Origin: an uncultured Thermococci archaeon
Lineage (GTDB): Archaea > CAYQAE01 > CAYVLA01
Direction of reading: 5' to 3'
DNA length: 64,000 nt
Assembly (NCBI GenBank): GCA_964549615.1
Contig: CAZJVP010000104.1
Location: 57,919-121,918, forward strand
Part shown: positions 156 through 15,129 of the stretch, one piece after another
Layout: each line of letters opens with the position of its first letter
Numbering within the stretch: position 1 is the first letter of the stretch
Notes under the pieces: generated by a model
What the model saw: only the letters and a program-made list of their open reading frames with translations
The model's database searches: none
Told to the model about the DNA's origin: nothing
Position numbers and translations under genes: made by a program

Positions 156-1556
156 TTGGCTGCAAAGGAGAAGTGCGCAGTATTCTCGGCGTACTCTGCC
201 GACTGCGAGACGATGGTGGCGAAGTCCATATACTGCGGCCTGCTTTCGATGCAGCACAGAGGCCAGGAGGCGTCGGGGATTTGCACCTACGACACGGAGA
301 AGCTTCGCCTACACCGCGGGCTCGGCCTGGTCAGGGAGGTCTTCGACGACGCCGATCTGCAGGACCTCTTCGGACACGTTGGAATTGGACATAATCGTTA
401 CTCCACAACCGGCGAGGCCTCCCCGGAGAACTGTCATCCCTTCCTCATCAAGGGGACCAAGAACGGCATAGCGATCGCGCACAACGGCAATCTTGTGAAC
501 TCCGAATCGCTCAGATCGTATCTAGCAGGGCGTGGCCACGTTTTCACCTCCTCAACGGACACGGAGCTCATCGCCCATGTGCTAGCGATAGAGCTGCTGC
601 GCCATGACCTAGAGGAAGCCCTGATCAATACCATGAGGAGGATCAGCGGGGCATACTCGCTCGTCATACTGACCGGAAAGGGGGAACTCGCTGCCGTACG
701 GGATCCGCTAGGCTTCCGCCCGCTCTGTCTCGGCTCGTGCGGGGAGACCTACTACGTCGCATCCGAGTCCGTGGGGGTGGAGGCGGCCGGAGGCGCGTTT
801 GAACGTTCGGTTCAACCGGGCGAGATAGTGCTTTTTGGTGATGGCGGACCCAGAAGCGTGAGGCCGTTCCGTGAGAGGAAACCGGCTCACTGCATGTTTG
901 AGTACGTTTATTTCTGCCGGCCCGACTCGATCGTCGAGGGAAAGTACGTGCTGCATGTGAGGGAGAGAATCGGCAGGATTCTCGCTAGAGAACATCCCGT
1001 GCAGGCCGACGTGGTCGTCCCGGTCCCAGACTCGGCGAGGACGGCGGCGGCTGGTTTCTCCGAGGAATCCGGCATCCGCGCGGTCGAGGGGATTTTCAAG
1101 AACCGTTACATAGGGCGCACATTCATCATGCCGGATCAACCGATGCGCGAGGAGGCGGTCAGGCTGAAGATGGCCGCGGTCCGACCCCTCATCGAGGGAA
1201 AGAGGGTGGTTCTGATGGACGACAGCATTGTGAGGGGAACGACGACGCGTCAGATCGTCGAGATCCTCAGGAGAGCTGGGGCCCGGCAGGTTCACGTCAG
1301 GATCGGCTGTCCGCCGCTGAAGTGGCCCTGTTTCATGGGCATAGATATGGCGAGCAGAGACGAACTTGTGGCTTCCAAGCGTAGCGTGGAGTCCATACGG
1401 AGGAAGCTGAAGGCGGACTCGCTTGGATACCTAAGCATCGAGGGCCTCGTGCAAGCCATTGGGCTTGGGAAGGACAGCCTCTGCTTGGCCTGTCTTACGG
1501 GCCAGTATCCCGTCAAGATCGAGGATGAACGATACAAGCAGGCGCTGACTTCATAG
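156..1556 (+). CDS. purF: amidophosphoribosyltransferase (glutamine PRPP amidotransferase, Fe-S type with short propeptide)
   Basis: EKC N-terminal nucleophile, QHRGQE, GHNRYST, HNGNLVN, PRPP motif VLMDDSIVRGTT; Fe-S Cys in HCMFEYVYF, CFMGID and CLAC. Start placed at in-frame TTG 156 (ORF track starts at 114). Confidence 0.96.
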   Translation: MAAKEKCAVFSAYSADCETMVAKSIYCGLLSMQHRGQEASGICTYDTEKLRLHRGLGLVREVFDDADLQDLFGHVGIGHNRYSTTGEASPENCHPFLIKGTKNGIAIAHNGNLVNSESLRSYLAGRGHVFTSSTDTELIAHVLAIELLRHDLEEALINTMRRISGAYSLVILTGKGELAAVRDPLGFRPLCLGSCGETYYVASESVGVEAAGGAFERSVQPGEIVLFGDGGPRSVRPFRERKPAHCMFEYVYFCRPDSIVEGKYVLHVRERIGRILAREHPVQADVVVPVPDSARTAAAGFSEESGIRAVEGIFKNRYIGRTFIMPDQPMREEAVRLKMAAVRPLIEGKRVVLMDDSIVRGTTTRQIVEILRRAGARQVHVRIGCPPLKWPCFMGIDMASRDELVASKRSVESIRRKLKADSLGYLSIEGLVQAIGLGKDSLCLACLTGQYPVKIEDERYKQALTS

Positions 1557-1564
1557 GTGGTCGG

Positions 1565-2917
1565 ATGCAGAAGGTGTTGGTCGTGGGAAACGGGGCTAGG
1601 GAGCATGCGATCGCTGAGGCCCTGGCCCGAAGTCCTCAGAAACCAGAGCTGTACTGCTACGTCACGGCCCGGAACCCGGGGATCCTACGCATCGCACGGG
1701 GATACCAGATCGGGGACATTAGAAAAGGAAGTGAGGTGGCTTCCTATGCGAGCCGCATGGGCATAGACATCGCGGTAATCGGGCCCGAGGGTCCGCTGGA
1801 GGCCGGCGTGGTGGACGATCTGGAGAGCGCAGGGATAGTGTGTGCAAGCCCATCGAGGAAGGCGGCAGAGATAGAAACTAGCAAGCTCTTCGCAAGGTGG
1901 CTGATGGACAAGTACAGGATTCCGGGGAGGAAGGAGTGGAGGGCATTTGAGGATCCCCGGGAGGCAGAGAAGTTCATCGACGAGATGGCCAGGCCCGTTG
2001 TCGTTAAGCCAATAGGTCTGACCGGCGGGAAAGGGGTGAAGATAGTCGATCCGAGGGTGTCCGGACAGCTCAAGGATCTAGAGGAGGCCAAGGCGTACGC
2101 GAGGAAGGTAATCGAGGAAAGGATAGGAGGCGCGGCGAAGGTCTTGGTCGAGGACCTTCTCATCGGCGAGGAGTTCACGCTGCAGGCCTTCGTCGACGGC
2201 AAGCACCTGGTGCCAACCCCGATCGTGCAAGACAACAAGTTCGCCTACGAGGGTGACACGGGTCCTTTCACCGGGAGCATGGGGTCGTTCTCGGACAGCA
2301 ATCACCTGTTGCCTTTCATGACGGCAATGGACTTTTACGCCGCGCTGCAGGTGATGGAGAGGACCGTGGAAGCGCTCAGGAAAGAGGGCCTGCGGTACAA
2401 GGGTGCTCTGTACGGCGGATTCATCCTGACGGCGGAGACCCCCAAGGTTCTGGAGTTCAACGCCAGATGGGGCGACCCTGAGGTCATCAATGTGCTGCCC
2501 CTTTTCGAAGGGGACTTCTTGGATGCCTGCTGGGCAATGGCGGAGGGCAAGCTGCGCAAGTTGGTTCCGAGCTTTAAGAACAAGGCGACGGTCTGCAAGT
2601 ACGTCGCGCCCCAGGGCTACCCGATCGATCCGGTGAAGGGCGGCAAGGTGGAAATTGGCGACCTGGGAAGTTCCAAGGCCCTCATCCACTTCGCCTCCGT
2701 CGACGAACGCGATGGAGAGATCTTCATGAGCAGCTCTAGGGCCTTGACCTGTACCGGCATAGCCGACACCATGGTCGAGGCGGAGAGGATCGCCGAGGAC
2801 GCCATATCGAGGATCAGAGGCCCCGTGTTCCACAGGCCGGACATAGGCACCAAGCGCCTCCTGGAGAAGAGGGTCTCCCACATGAATCGGATCAGGCGTG
2901 GACGGGCCAATGGTTGA
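1565..2917 (+). CDS. purD: phosphoribosylamine--glycine ligase
   Basis: KVLVVGNGAREHAIA, IGPEGPL, GGKGV, EFNARWGDPE; directly follows purF. Confidence 0.96.
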   Translation: MQKVLVVGNGAREHAIAEALARSPQKPELYCYVTARNPGILRIARGYQIGDIRKGSEVASYASRMGIDIAVIGPEGPLEAGVVDDLESAGIVCASPSRKAAEIETSKLFARWLMDKYRIPGRKEWRAFEDPREAEKFIDEMARPVVVKPIGLTGGKGVKIVDPRVSGQLKDLEEAKAYARKVIEERIGGAAKVLVEDLLIGEEFTLQAFVDGKHLVPTPIVQDNKFAYEGDTGPFTGSMGSFSDSNHLLPFMTAMDFYAALQVMERTVEALRKEGLRYKGALYGGFILTAETPKVLEFNARWGDPEVINVLPLFEGDFLDACWAMAEGKLRKLVPSFKNKATVCKYVAPQGYPIDPVKGGKVEIGDLGSSKALIHFASVDERDGEIFMSSSRALTCTGIADTMVEAERIAEDAISRIRGPVFHRPDIGTKRLLEKRVSHMNRIRRGRANG

Positions 2918-4001
2918 ATCGGACCTTGAAGGGCCATGGGTGAAGGCTGACCATGCCTTCGATTCGGTTGCGAAAGCGGTGCCTAATGGGGATCGCGTCT
3001 TCCAGGTCATATCCTCCTACGATGACGTGCGGTTCTTGGTCGAGAAGGCGCCGGGGTACGAGGCAGGCGATACTCTCAAGCTCATAGCGCCACTTCTCGT
3101 TGCGCATGGAGCCGACGAACGATTCCTAAGGCAAGTCGCCGCCTCGCCCGACAATACTACCGTGATCCCCGGGGCAAGGGAGGCGATACGCTACATCAGG
3201 CGCAGCGACCCCTTCTATCTCATATCCACATCCTATGAGCAGTACGTCAACTTCATCTGCTCCTTCCTCGGAGTGCCGAGAAGGAATGCATTCTGCACGA
3301 GCTTTCCAATCGATCGCCTCTCGGCGGGCATCCGGGAGAAAGATATCCGCATGGTCAAGGATTGGACGCGCAGGATAGCCGCGATGCCGCTCATCGCAGT
3401 GGATGATTCAGGGATGTTGGTGGATTCCTGCCGGGAGGCGAAGGAAGCTCTGGACGAGTTCTTCTGGAAGATTCTCCCCGAGAGTTCGTTCGCGCAACTG
3501 ATGCAAGCGGTGAAACCGGTGGGGGGAACCAGGAAGTATGAGGCTCTCCTCAGGGCTCTGTCCCGGGAAGGAAGGTCGCTGGCCGAATCGAAGGTCATCG
3601 GCGACAGCATCACCGACAGCGTCATGCTTTCCAGGGCAAGGGACGCCGGGGGCCTCGCTGTTTCTTTCAACGGCAACAGATACTCAATCCGGAATTCGAA
3701 CGTCGCGGTGGTTTCCGGAAACTGCTGGGCGACGGCGGCCGTGCTTGAGCTATACGGGATCGGCGGGCACGAAGCGGTGAGGGAGGCGGCGTGCGAATGG
3801 GATTTGGGGGTCTTCGGTCGGTTGGAGTCCCGGGGCCTCTTGACGGCCGATCTGGCAAAGGAGCTTCGAATGGCGTTCCCCTCGGCAGAGTCCTTTCCAA
3901 GGCTCTACTGGCTGCAGGACGCTGATGTGGAAGCTGTCATCGCCGAGAGCGAGACCTTTAGAAAGAAGATCCGTGGGACCAGCATAGGTGCGCTGGGCTA
4001 G
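2910..4001 (+). CDS. HAD-superfamily protein of the archaeal COG4030 / EhaR-like family
   Basis: SDLEGPW (HAD motif I-like), YDD...GYEAGDTLKLI, ISTSY, IGDSITD, SFNGNRY; ATG 2910 overlaps the purD stop. Confidence 0.75.
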   Translation: MVESDLEGPWVKADHAFDSVAKAVPNGDRVFQVISSYDDVRFLVEKAPGYEAGDTLKLIAPLLVAHGADERFLRQVAASPDNTTVIPGAREAIRYIRRSDPFYLISTSYEQYVNFICSFLGVPRRNAFCTSFPIDRLSAGIREKDIRMVKDWTRRIAAMPLIAVDDSGMLVDSCREAKEALDEFFWKILPESSFAQLMQAVKPVGGTRKYEALLRALSREGRSLAESKVIGDSITDSVMLSRARDAGGLAVSFNGNRYSIRNSNVAVVSGNCWATAAVLELYGIGGHEAVREAACEWDLGVFGRLESRGLLTADLAKELRMAFPSAESFPRLYWLQDADVEAVIAESETFRKKIRGTSIGALG

Positions 4002-4912
4002 CACCCATCGGCGAGCTCTTCGAGCTGCTTTCTGGTCGGGAGGCCGGCCCGGGCTCCCAACTTCTGGACGCAGAACCAGGCAACCTTGGCCCCGATCCTG
4101 CCGCAGTCGGCCAAGCTCATTCCAGTCATCAACCCGTAGATGAACCCAGCGTTGAAGGCGTCGCCTGCGCCGGTTGTGTCCACCCCCCTGCCTCCGTAGG
4201 CAGGGACCCTTTCCTTGATGGTTCCGTCGGTGATGTAGCATCCCTTGAGCCCCATCTTGACCGCAACCGCTCTTGCCCCCATCCTCAGCAGTTTTCTTGC
4301 ACCCTCTGCTGGAGCTAGCCCGGTCATTAGCCGAAGCTCCCTTTGGTTGGGAAGGACGACCGCACATTTCTCAATTATGGGCTTCAGAGCAGCCAGTCCC
4401 CTTTCGGCGTAAAGTTGGCCTGGGTCCAGGCTCAGTGGGATTTCGATTTCCTGCGCAATGGCAAGCTGGGTTCGAAGCGAGAGGTCGGTCGATTTGCAGA
4501 CGAAGGAGGTCATGTGGAGCAGGTCAAAGCTCGCGAGGTACGCCAGATCCACGTCCTGCAGCGAGATGCAGTCGTTCACTCCGGGGTCGATGAGGAGGGC
4601 CCTTTGGCCTTGCCTGTCCACAAGGGACAGCCCGGCTCCCGTCCTGCCCTCGCAGACAACGATGCCGCTTGTTTCCACGCCCTCGGCCGCAAGATCCCTA
4701 AGCATGGCAGAGCCCTCTGGATCTCTTCCAACTTTGCCCACATAACCGGTGCGCATGCCAAGCCGGGAAAGGCCGACGATGGTATTTGCGGCCGATCCCC
4801 CGGGGTGCCACTCCACGGAGAGCACGAAACCTTCCTCCTCCGCCGACGGTATCTTGTCGACCAACGCGATCTTGTCCATGTTCAGCGCGCCAAACCCCAC
4901 TACGCCAGGCAC
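3998..4912 (-). CDS. PfkB/ribokinase-family carbohydrate or nucleoside kinase
   Basis: PGGSAANT, VGKVGRD, PNQRE, DTTGAGDAFNAG signature. Confidence 0.93.
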   Translation of the reverse strand: MPGVVGFGALNMDKIALVDKIPSAEEEGFVLSVEWHPGGSAANTIVGLSRLGMRTGYVGKVGRDPEGSAMLRDLAAEGVETSGIVVCEGRTGAGLSLVDRQGQRALLIDPGVNDCISLQDVDLAYLASFDLLHMTSFVCKSTDLSLRTQLAIAQEIEIPLSLDPGQLYAERGLAALKPIIEKCAVVLPNQRELRLMTGLAPAEGARKLLRMGARAVAVKMGLKGCYITDGTIKERVPAYGGRGVDTTGAGDAFNAGFIYGLMTGMSLADCGRIGAKVAWFCVQKLGARAGLPTRKQLEELADGC

Positions 4913-13305: not shown

Positions 13306-14175
13306 TCATACGCCGGTTGGGAGGATCTCCCTGACTAGAAGGCCTATCAGGAAGCTGAGTCCGGCGACGCCCAGGCTGATGCCCGCCATCTCGAGGAATC
13401 GCCTCCTGAATGGCTGGTCCTTGGCGACCGAGATGTAGAAGCTGAAAACTAGGATAACCACTATCGCATTGAGGATCGTGAACGCCAACGCATGGTAGAT
13501 GTTCACGAAGACTAGGAAAGGCATGATCAAGAAGAGAACGGTCAAGACGTAGGCAACGCCAGTGTACACCATCGCCCGCCCAGGCTTCCTCGGACCGCCC
13601 TCCGACTTGGTGGATAGGTATTCTGACGCAGCCATCGAGAAGGATGCCGCTATTCCGGTTATCAACCCCGCGACGGCAACGAGACGTGTGGTCCGGAGGG
13701 CAAAACTCAACCCGGCAAGGGCGCCGGTAAGCTCGACTAGGGCATCGTTGAGTCCTAGGACGACGGACCCTACGTATCTCAGTCTCTCCTCGTCTAACAG
13801 GCCTAGAAGTTGCTTCTCGTGGTCCTGCTCATCCGTCATGACGTCCTTGATTCCGGGCAGATGGCCCGCCATGCGCTGGTAAGCGGCCTGGGCCCTTCCC
13901 TCCCCCCTCTCCATGAGCTTGAGGGCGAAGGTGATGCCCAAGACCTTTGAGATGAGCATGAATTTGTAATACCCTGTGCGGCTCGGCGCAACATCGATCC
14001 CGGTGTTCTCTCTGAAGAAACTGTAATGCTTCAGCTCGTCCTCGGCCACCCTTTCGAGGATCTGGCTGTTGTGCGGATCGCGGACGGACTTTGCTAGCTT
14101 GCTGTATACCCGGTGTTCGGTGATCTCATTTCTCTGCGCGGCTATTAGCCTTCTCGCTAGGTTTTCTGGTTCCAT
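13306..14175 (-). CDS. rubrerythrin/ferritin-like N-terminus fused to VIT1/CCC1 metal transporter
   Basis: QRNEITEH, DELKH, DEQDHE; SVVLGLNDALVELTGALAG and SMAASEYLS (VIT1). Start placed at ATG 14175. Confidence 0.9.
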   Translation of the reverse strand: MEPENLARRLIAAQRNEITEHRVYSKLAKSVRDPHNSQILERVAEDELKHYSFFRENTGIDVAPSRTGYYKFMLISKVLGITFALKLMERGEGRAQAAYQRMAGHLPGIKDVMTDEQDHEKQLLGLLDEERLRYVGSVVLGLNDALVELTGALAGLSFALRTTRLVAVAGLITGIAASFSMAASEYLSTKSEGGPRKPGRAMVYTGVAYVLTVLFLIMPFLVFVNIYHALAFTILNAIVVILVFSFYISVAKDQPFRRRFLEMAGISLGVAGLSFLIGLLVREILPTGV

Positions 14176-14333
14176 TGGCTCACGGAGGCGCCGCGTGCTA
14201 TTAAAGTGGTGCGTGGCGTGGCTCCGTTGGACATTCGCAGGCTGCACCCCCAAGCGGGCAATACCGTGAGGTTCGTCCAGCCCCAGGTCCAAGACGGTGG
14301 CAATGCCAGCCCGGGGGCTCGACGATGCCCCGT

Positions 14334-14350
14334 GAAATTACATTTTAATT
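14334..14350 (+). promoter_or_regulatory. promoter of stand-alone 5S rRNA gene
   Basis: GAAATTACATTTTAATT; TATA spacing predicts a start near 14370-14374, where the precursor stem begins. Confidence 0.6.
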
Positions 14351-14384
14351 CTGCCGTTGGGTTGTCTGTGCGCGAGGGGCAACG

Positions 14385-14533
14385 AGCCGGCGGCCATAGG
14401 GGCCTGGAAACACCCGGTCTCATTCTTCTCGGAAACGATGAAGGAGGAACCCGAACCCGGAAGTTAAGCAGGCCTGCGTCCCTTGCTGTACTGAGGTGGG
14501 CGACCCCTCGGGAACCATGGGTCGCTGCCGGTT
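14385..14533 (+). rRNA. rrf: 5S rRNA containing a 26-nt insertion (putative BHB intron) in loop C
   Basis: Conserved 5S blocks GGCGGCCATAG, GAAACACCCGGTCTCAT, CCGAACCCGGAAGTTAAG, GTACTG, GGGAA, TCGCTGCC. Helix I ends pair; helix II GGCCTG (14401-14406) pairs with CAGGCC (14469-14474). About 121-123 nt without the insert; exact ends are approximate. Confidence 0.95.
14424..14449 (+). other. putative BHB-type intron within 5S rRNA
   Basis: TCTTCTCGGAAACGATGAAGGAGGAA, a GAAA-tetraloop hairpin bounded by a canonical hBHBh' motif; removal gives loop C UCUCAUCCCGAAC. Confidence 0.8.
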
Positions 14534-14550
14534 CGTCCAATCTCGCAGAT

Positions 14551-15129
14551 CTAATCGCCGAGCGTTCTCTTTGCGGCCAGCACCCTTTGGGCCACGGTCA
14601 CCCAGGCTAGGATGCCGATGATGACGATGCCTGCCTGAAGGACGTTGACTTGGGTGGTCAGAGGGTGGAATATGCTGAAGAGAGCCAGCATCACCTGCCT
14701 TTCAGCCCGCTCCGCGATGCCGACCGCCATGCCCGTTGACCCGGCGGCTTCGCCTCTAGCCCTGCAGTAGGGAACGAGGAACGATCCGAAGACCGTCAGC
14801 ATTACCAGCCGCCAGTCCACGATCTCGGAGAGCGCGATCCCACCTAGGACGGCGAAGTCGGATATGCGGTCGAAAGTCGAGTCCAAGAAGCCCCCGAACC
14901 GAGAGACTCGACCGGTTATCCGTGCTACCGCCCCGTCCATCGCATCAAGCGCTCCGGAAGCCAACAAGACAACCCCACCGAGCTGCACCATTTTGAAGCG
15001 GTAGAGGACGGCGGCTACGATCGCGGTGAGAAGGCTGAGGGAGGTGACGGCGTTTGGGGGCAGAAAGGATATGCCTGCAGCAAGACGATCGAAGTACGCG
15101 TTGACTGTGCGACGGTATCTCGTGAGCAA
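14551..15129 (-). CDS. CDP-alcohol phosphatidyltransferase (archaetidylinositol-phosphate synthase-like)
   Basis: PNAVT, DAMDGAVAR...FGGFLDSTFDRISD, YCRARGE, ERAER. Confidence 0.9.
   Translation of the reverse strand: MLTRYRRTVNAYFDRLAAGISFLPPNAVTSLSLLTAIVAAVLYRFKMVQLGGVVLLASGALDAMDGAVARITGRVSRFGGFLDSTFDRISDFAVLGGIALSEIVDWRLVMLTVFGSFLVPYCRARGEAAGSTGMAVGIAERAERQVMLALFSIFHPLTTQVNVLQAGIVIIGILAWVTVAQRVLAAKRTLGD

Follow-up and report, generated by a model that had tools for sequence, protein, structure and literature searches.

Two of the ribosomal RNAs (rRNAs) of archaea, 16S and 23S, "but not 5S", have been described as undergoing excision and circularisation (PMC12918454). In uncultivated archaea, a canonical bulge-helix-bulge (BHB) motif accompanies circular 16S and 23S transcripts, whereas absence of the motif goes with absence of such transcripts, and the circular 23S rRNA is retained in mature archaeal ribosomes (PMC12918454). 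In Thermoproteus, whose signal recognition particle (SRP) RNA is permuted, a BHB formed by the leader and the trailer is cut by recombinant EndA, the splicing endonuclease, and the circle is the working form of the RNA (PMC4731332). Low-level circles of 5S rRNA have been reported from Sulfolobus solfataricus (PMC3326292) and Halobacterium salinarum (PMC12558985), with variable ends and low counts, and were discussed as possible degradation products (PMC3326292; PMC12558985); should such circles be verified, they would have to arise by a route that does not depend on BHB motifs (bioRxiv 10.64898/2026.03.23.713588). The maturation of archaeal 5S rRNA is poorly known and apparently differs among groups, with processing by tRNase Z in Haloferax (PMC7714728), processing via cuts at A/U-rich motifs in Methanococcus (PMC10515664), and a part played by FAU-1 in Pyrococcus (PMC7758197). 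No description of a BHB around 5S rRNA was found in the abstracts and passages covered, in which subscription journals are poorly represented. The present analysis concerns a 5S rRNA gene that is enclosed by such a motif. The gene lies in a stretch of 64,000 nucleotides (nt) from an uncultured Thermococci archaeon (GenBank assembly GCA_964549615.1, contig CAZJVP010000104.1, positions 57,919 to 121,918 of the forward strand), referred to as the window and numbered from its first letter.

The 5S rRNA gene was recognised by the Rfam model RF00001 at 14386-14533 on the plus strand (89.8 bits, E 5.9e-18, cut-off 38), with the match covering the full model (positions 1-120) and holding, in loop C, 27 inserted nt where the model has 1. 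The flanks were searched with a scanner whose geometry consists of an outer helix, four central pairs and, on each strand, a 3-nt bulge and an inner helix. One motif around the gene was clearly the best, with an outer helix of 5 base pairs (bp), 4/4 central pairs, and an inner helix of 11 bp, and all remaining matches near the gene had an outer or inner helix of just 2-3 bp. In this motif, which lies on the plus strand, the outer helix pairs GCGAG (14372-14376) with CTCGC (14542-14546), and the central helix pairs GGGC (14377-14380) with GTCC (14535-14538) through three Watson-Crick pairs and G14379.T14536. The bulges are AAC (14381-14383) on the 5′ side and AAT (14539-14541) on the 3′ side, and the inner helix is helix I of the 5S rRNA itself (14384-14534, from the Rfam match and the scanner), with 11 consecutive pairs starting from G14384-C14534. 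A leader of some 12 nt (14372-14383) can pair with 14535-14546, the opening 12 nt of the trailer, into a BHB stacked on helix I, in which the features of a canonical hBHBh′ motif—a complete central helix, bulges of 3 and 3 nt, and helices on both sides—are present. Every letter and coordinate that an earlier note on this DNA had given for a BHB around the 5S gene was found in the window. The cuts by EndA are predicted at 14382/14383 and 14540/14541, which leaves just 1 nt between cut and helix I on the 5′ side, and 6 nt on the 3′ side.

The same arrangement was found in the relatives of this archaeon. The phylum comprises five species in the genome set searched, in which the family consists of G001-G003 besides the genome of the window (G000); a contig scan gave only three family genomes, all of them from that set. 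A metagenome scan with a 17-letter pattern returned at least 118 stretches, of which six passed a context filter, with four true 5S genes among the matches listed; two loci (L085 and L137) were chance matches with no true 5S, and two others (L065 and L096), identical across the 340 nt compared, were treated as one sequence. The resulting family set consists of seven sequences, namely the window, G001-G003, and the metagenome loci L047, L065, and L069. The enlarged 5S gene, together with a leader/trailer stem interrupted by two 3-nt bulges, is present in 7/7, and five of the seven (the window, G002, L047, L065, and L069) satisfy the strict scan or match by eye. The bulge sizes are 3 and 3 throughout, with the 5′ bulge reading AAC in five sequences and ACC in two, and the 3′ bulge AAT in five and AAA in two; the central helix has 4/4 pairs in six sequences. 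L065 has the outer helix, central helix, and bulges of the window, L047 has an outer helix of 5 bp and a central helix of GGAC with GTCT, and G002 and L069 have outer helices of 6-8 bp, four central pairs, and the bulges ACC and AAA, so that the outer helix spans 5-8 bp across these four. In G003, the outer helix is a 6-bp pairing of GAAGAG with CTCTTC, with two pairs changed on both sides. In G001, it consists of 2 bp, a bulged A, and 7 bp, with the leader being 5 nt longer and its complement in the trailer lengthened too.

Changes on both sides of the helix were observed in 3/5 outer pairs among the seven sequences, and 27/28 cells of the central helix are paired. For the whole structure, 98.2% of the cells are paired, compared with 36-58% when the partner strand is slid by 1-3 columns, and the observed covariation score was reached in just 2/500 shuffles. 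Outside the motif, the flanks of the seven cannot be aligned, whether in the interval that follows the promoter box or beyond the 3′ strand of the helix. Conservation of the flanking pairing in relatives had been put forward in the earlier note as a check, and the outcome was positive, with the pairing kept in every family member and with compensatory changes in the outer helix.

One explanation of such pairing is chance complementarity of G+C-rich flanks that has no function. When a 45-nt leader and a 45-nt trailer were subjected to 5000 mononucleotide shuffles with the 5S sequence fixed, and the outer helix was required to reach 5 bp or more, a BHB at helix I appeared in 75 (1.5%), and any BHB at all in 116 (2.3%). 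By rough estimate, motifs of this kind should occur frequently across the genome. The motif in a single sequence is thus moderately improbable and suggestive at best, and the shuffles speak for chance and against a functional motif to that extent. The weight against chance comes instead from conservation in 7/7 relatives, where the motif is kept while the nearby flanks diverge and three outer pairs have changed on both sides, and from absence at helix I in 46/46 other genomes. These controls comprised one 5S copy each from 46 of 56 archaeal genomes outside the phylum, the ten lowest-scoring or partial matches being left out; a BHB adjoining helix I was found in 0/46, and a weak A/T-rich match located elsewhere than helix I in 2/46. 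In the sister-family genome G004, the scan likewise gave no convincing outer BHB, only weak A/T-rich matches with outer helices of 2-3 bp. Chance complementarity is, on this evidence, a very improbable explanation, and the BHB formed by the 5S leader and trailer is confirmed as a real motif.

The motif stands near the likely start of the transcript. A conserved A/T-rich promoter box is located at 14338-14349 on the plus strand, with TTACATTTT.A invariant in 7/7 sequences (alignment columns T9-T17 and A19). The TTTTAAT at 14343-14349 ends 22 nt ahead of G14372, the first nt of the outer helix, and the central helix follows the promoter box at a distance of 27-28 nt in six of the sequences, compared with 32 nt in G001. 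The usual archaeal spacing between box and start puts the start of transcription near 14372. We infer that the box at 14338-14349 is a TATA box with a transcript start near 14372, and GCGAG (14372-14376) probably represents the first nucleotides of the 5S transcript; given the usual spacing, the 5S leader would be just the BHB strand. The 22-nt gap is consistent, under that spacing, with the suggestion of the earlier note that the outer helix begins about where the TATA box predicts transcription to start. At the other end of the gene, a run of at least five T within 20 nt 3′ of the 5S sequence was found in 0/4 family genomes and in 13/46 controls, and is present in G004, where six T directly follow the 5S gene. 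Because a T-run terminator after helix I is absent in the family, some 3′ processing would be needed. The 5S gene is solitary, being the sole 5S match in the 3.2-Mb assembly, with the 16S-23S unit on another contig, and its own promoter is proposed to make the 5S rRNA of this lineage as a short precursor.

A second BHB is located inside the gene. A 26-nt intron is predicted in loop C at 14424-14449 on the plus strand (motif 14415-14453), from the Rfam insertion and the scanner, with the central helix pairing TCTC (14418-14421) with GAGG (14444-14447) and with the bulges ATT (14422-14424) and AAC (14448-14450). Joining 14423 to 14450 restores the loop C consensus of Rfam. The inner motif is unchanged across G000-G003 and the metagenome relatives, whereas the interior of the intron varies in both length and sequence. 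The inner member of the nested BHB pair implied by the earlier note is also present. The framing of the loop-C intron by a BHB means that EndA would have to handle the 5S precursor anyway. No report of introns in 5S rRNA was found in the literature covered, in which subscription journals are poorly represented. The 5S gene of G004 (L031, G004:C4:5569-5726) is 158 nt long; its loop C is interrupted at the same site by an insertion of greater length, around which the strict scan detected no BHB. For annotation, it matters that 5S genes with introns and BHB flanks exceed the length that models expect.

The handedness of the motif and the cut rule were checked against the introns of tRNA genes in the same genome. 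In the geometry used, each strand has its bulge on the 3′ side of the four central nt, and the cut falls after the second bulge nt. Among the nine short-intron tRNAs called by ARAGORN, this geometry and cut rule reproduced the intron borders exactly in two, tRNA-Thr(CGT) and tRNA-Gly(TCC), whereas the mirror geometry did so in none (0/9). For the other seven calls, the gene lengths are odd and additional introns are probable. ARAGORN found just 25 tRNA genes in this 3.2-Mb, 99%-complete assembly, nine of them intronless and 16 with intron calls, which suggests many tRNA genes with several introns, or with introns at unusual positions, that the program missed. The low tRNA count and the many intron calls hint at a busy splicing machinery.

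The enzymes that the proposed excision and joining of 5S rRNA would require are encoded. Two long EndA paralogues were identified by matches to PF01974, and both also match PF02778. The first, of 393 amino acids (aa), combines an N-terminal domain with two domains of the catalytic type (L150:1456-2637, minus strand), and the second, of 403 aa, has a single catalytic domain together with two stretches of N-terminal domain (L151:1195-2406, minus strand). RtcB is encoded as well (PF01139, 607 bits). Furthermore, other stable RNAs of the genome have BHB motifs at their ends. The 23S rRNA (G000:C46 (L158) 983-4014) is enclosed by a strong, canonical BHB stem formed by about 938-967 with 4029-4058, with an outer helix of 12 bp and an inner helix of 11 bp, for which there are two equally good registers one base apart. 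The SRP RNA, which is not permuted (G000:C72:40933-41243; L182 1501-1811), has a canonical BHB formed by leader and trailer and adjoining the terminal helix, with an outer helix of 9-10 bp, 4/4 central pairs, and bulges of 3 and 3 nt. This motif was found by strict scan in G000, G001, and G003, and by eye, with mismatches, in G002; G004 is without it. A flanking BHB was also looked for at the RNase P RNA of the genome, and none was found. The gene for 16S rRNA is divided between the ends of two contigs (G000:C78:1-672 and C46:41-678) and matches its model in pieces; a scan of the joined flanks gave one weak match (outer 5, inner 4), which was not counted as a BHB.

Our best reading of the locus, to which we give slightly better than an even chance on the basis of these sequence features, is that EndA excises the pre-5S rRNA at the BHB of leader and trailer, with ligation to a circle likely to follow. 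The motif, its conservation, and the enzyme genes are observed, and it is next to these that we infer cleavage, ligation, and the fate of a circle. The leader and trailer of a short 5S precursor would pair into a canonical BHB on helix I, and EndA would cut at the two sites flanking the 5S sequence and at both sites of the loop-C intron, setting both 5S ends without a precise terminator. The product of excision would be a 158-nt pre-5S rRNA, of 132 nt after removal of the intron. The ends left by EndA, a 5′-OH and a 2′,3′-cyclic phosphate, would be held together by helix I, and RtcB would join the exon halves and probably also 14540 to 14383, yielding a 132-nt circle at least as an intermediate. 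Since helix I would hold the cut ends together, this joining by RtcB is likely; and with helix I just 1 nt and 6 nt away from the cuts, there would be hardly any room for a second, linearising cut. In the circle, helix I would be capped by 7 nt (14535-14540 and 14383). The invariant bulge nucleotides comprise C14383, A14539, and A14540, which would stay in the product, and also A14381, which would be discarded, while the second nt of the 5′ bulge and the third nt of the 3′ bulge vary; the invariance of the retained nucleotides, in seven sequences, gives a weak hint.

Several observations weigh against excision by EndA. The fold chosen by both RNAfold for the window and RNAalifold for the seven sequences is not the BHB, but a rival with a 4x4 internal loop, in which C14383-G14535 and A14382-T14536 lengthen helix I and G14377.T14541 lengthens the outer helix. 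The two pairs added to helix I are the competing pairing that the earlier note had pointed out, and the sequence does allow them. At 37 °C, the BHB conformer lies 0.9-5.4 kcal/mol above the minimum in 6/7 sequences, with forcing the BHB costing 0.9-3.6 kcal/mol in five and 5.4 kcal/mol in G003; it is the minimum-energy fold in L069 only. The differences in energy shrink at 70 °C. Moreover, G003 has just 3/4 central pairs, with A opposite G at the fourth, and 7/7 sequences, G003 included, are compatible with a register that has C14383-G14535 and a central helix of 3 bp. The changes on both sides of the outer helix come from only two lineages (G001 and G003), and the seven sequences are kin. If transcription begins after 14372, the outer helix would be shorter than 5 bp. 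Of 21 sequencing runs listed, four were compared with the locus as contigs at 85% likeness: the RNA libraries X5, X21, and X20, and X1, which is probably the source DNA. In this form, contigs cannot show absence of junctions; no RNA contig spanned the predicted cut sites, no joints were listed, and no contig matching the 5S locus was found in X5 and X21. In X20, a sediment RNA library, one 151-nt contig of a relative matched 14441-14546, beginning inside the predicted intron, and continued through the trailer into unlike sequence without a joint; if it is RNA, this contig represents an unprocessed precursor, and it may equally be library DNA.

The folds chosen by RNAfold and RNAalifold support the view that the pairing of leader and trailer yields a stem, interrupted by a symmetric internal loop, for processing or protection. 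Another nuclease or a protein would recognise this stem, or it would simply shield the ends; its likeness to a BHB would be incidental, with no cut by EndA. The missing fourth central pair in G003 fits this view, as does the processing of 5S rRNA by other nucleases in other archaea (PMC7714728; PMC10515664; PMC7758197). However, pairing holds in 17/21 cells for the three pairs that the rival fold adds, compared with 27/28 for the central helix of the BHB, and two of the three are each broken in 2/7 sequences (G002 and L069), in both of which the central helix of the BHB is kept. The bulges remain 3 and 3 nt in 7/7 sequences, and the same genomes have an SRP RNA BHB and a BHB intron in 5S rRNA, so that EndA would meet the precursor anyway. 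As far as an alignment can tell, the covariation proves a stem of leader and trailer with two 3-nt interruptions, and it favours the exact BHB register over the rival only weakly. We regard a stem unrelated to EndA as unlikely, though a candidate to be taken seriously.

A different question is whether excision at the BHB would lead to a circle. EndA might cut the motif merely to trim the ends, leaving a linear product whose 6-nt 3′ tail would be removed by an exonuclease or tolerated, with circles not arising in any appreciable amount. The sequence evidence for trimming alone is the same as that for circularisation, and the rare 5S circles with variable ends in Sulfolobus and Halobacterium (PMC3326292; PMC12558985) are such that a circular stage is not known, from these sources, to be needed. 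On the other hand, RNAs excised at a BHB are ligated by RtcB in the cases of 16S and 23S rRNA (PMC12918454) and Thermoproteus SRP RNA (PMC4731332), and in the present locus the ends would sit on an 11-bp helix in a genome that encodes RtcB. Trimming without ligation therefore appears distinctly improbable to us. Excision followed by ligation can also be extended to the proposal that the working ribosomal 5S rRNA is the closed 132-nt circle, that the non-permuted SRP RNA is probably circular too, and that EndA and RtcB produce these forms in one pass that includes removal of the intron. This bolder proposal we hold to be unlikely. If true, the splicing machinery would act as a general system for end maturation and circularisation of small stable RNAs, and the circles would make such RNAs exonuclease-proof at high temperature.

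The 5S gene is flanked by two protein-coding genes, both on the minus strand. Upstream and divergent is a VIT1/rubrerythrin-like gene (13306-14292), and downstream and convergent is a gene for a CDP-alcohol phosphatidyltransferase (14551-15129), whose stop codon is separated by 4 nt from the 3′ strand of the outer helix.

The nested BHBs on a stand-alone 5S gene would carry the pathway of EndA and RtcB to a third rRNA, and the outer BHB predicts exact cut sites and junctions for it. The presence of motifs on both 5S rRNA and SRP RNA in the same genomes points to a hot-spring lineage that uses its tRNA-splicing machinery to form the termini of several stable RNAs. Among the known systems, the low-level 5S circles of S. 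solfataricus and H. salinarum resemble the product predicted here in being circular forms of 5S rRNA in archaea, but they have variable ends and, in the accessible texts, no tie to a BHB (PMC3326292; PMC12558985). The SRP RNA of Thermoproteus, too, is small and stable and has a promoter of its own, and its short leader, of 23 nt, pairs with the trailer into a BHB (PMC4731332). However, the 5S gene of the window is not permuted, and a circle is not needed to restore the order of its parts; the RNA and the lineage also differ. The circular 23S rRNA is similar to the predicted 5S circle in being joined at a BHB near the terminal helix, with a small loop as a cap, but a retained circle has been shown for 23S alone, and a GNRA tetraloop closes the 23S rRNA (PMC12918454), whereas the predicted joint in 5S rRNA would leave 7 nt that are not GNRA. 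There is also a likeness in form to the BHB stems of 16S and 23S rRNA, in which an rRNA is enclosed by a stem of leader and trailer with two 3-nt bulges 4 bp apart, and of which the 23S rRNA of this genome, where EndA and RtcB are encoded as well, has one. Unlike in those cases, the enclosed RNA is 5S rRNA and the stem is minimal, with the whole leader being the 12-nt BHB strand. Overall, the BHB of the 5S leader and trailer suggests a variant of a known processing system that has so far been described only for the two large rRNAs.

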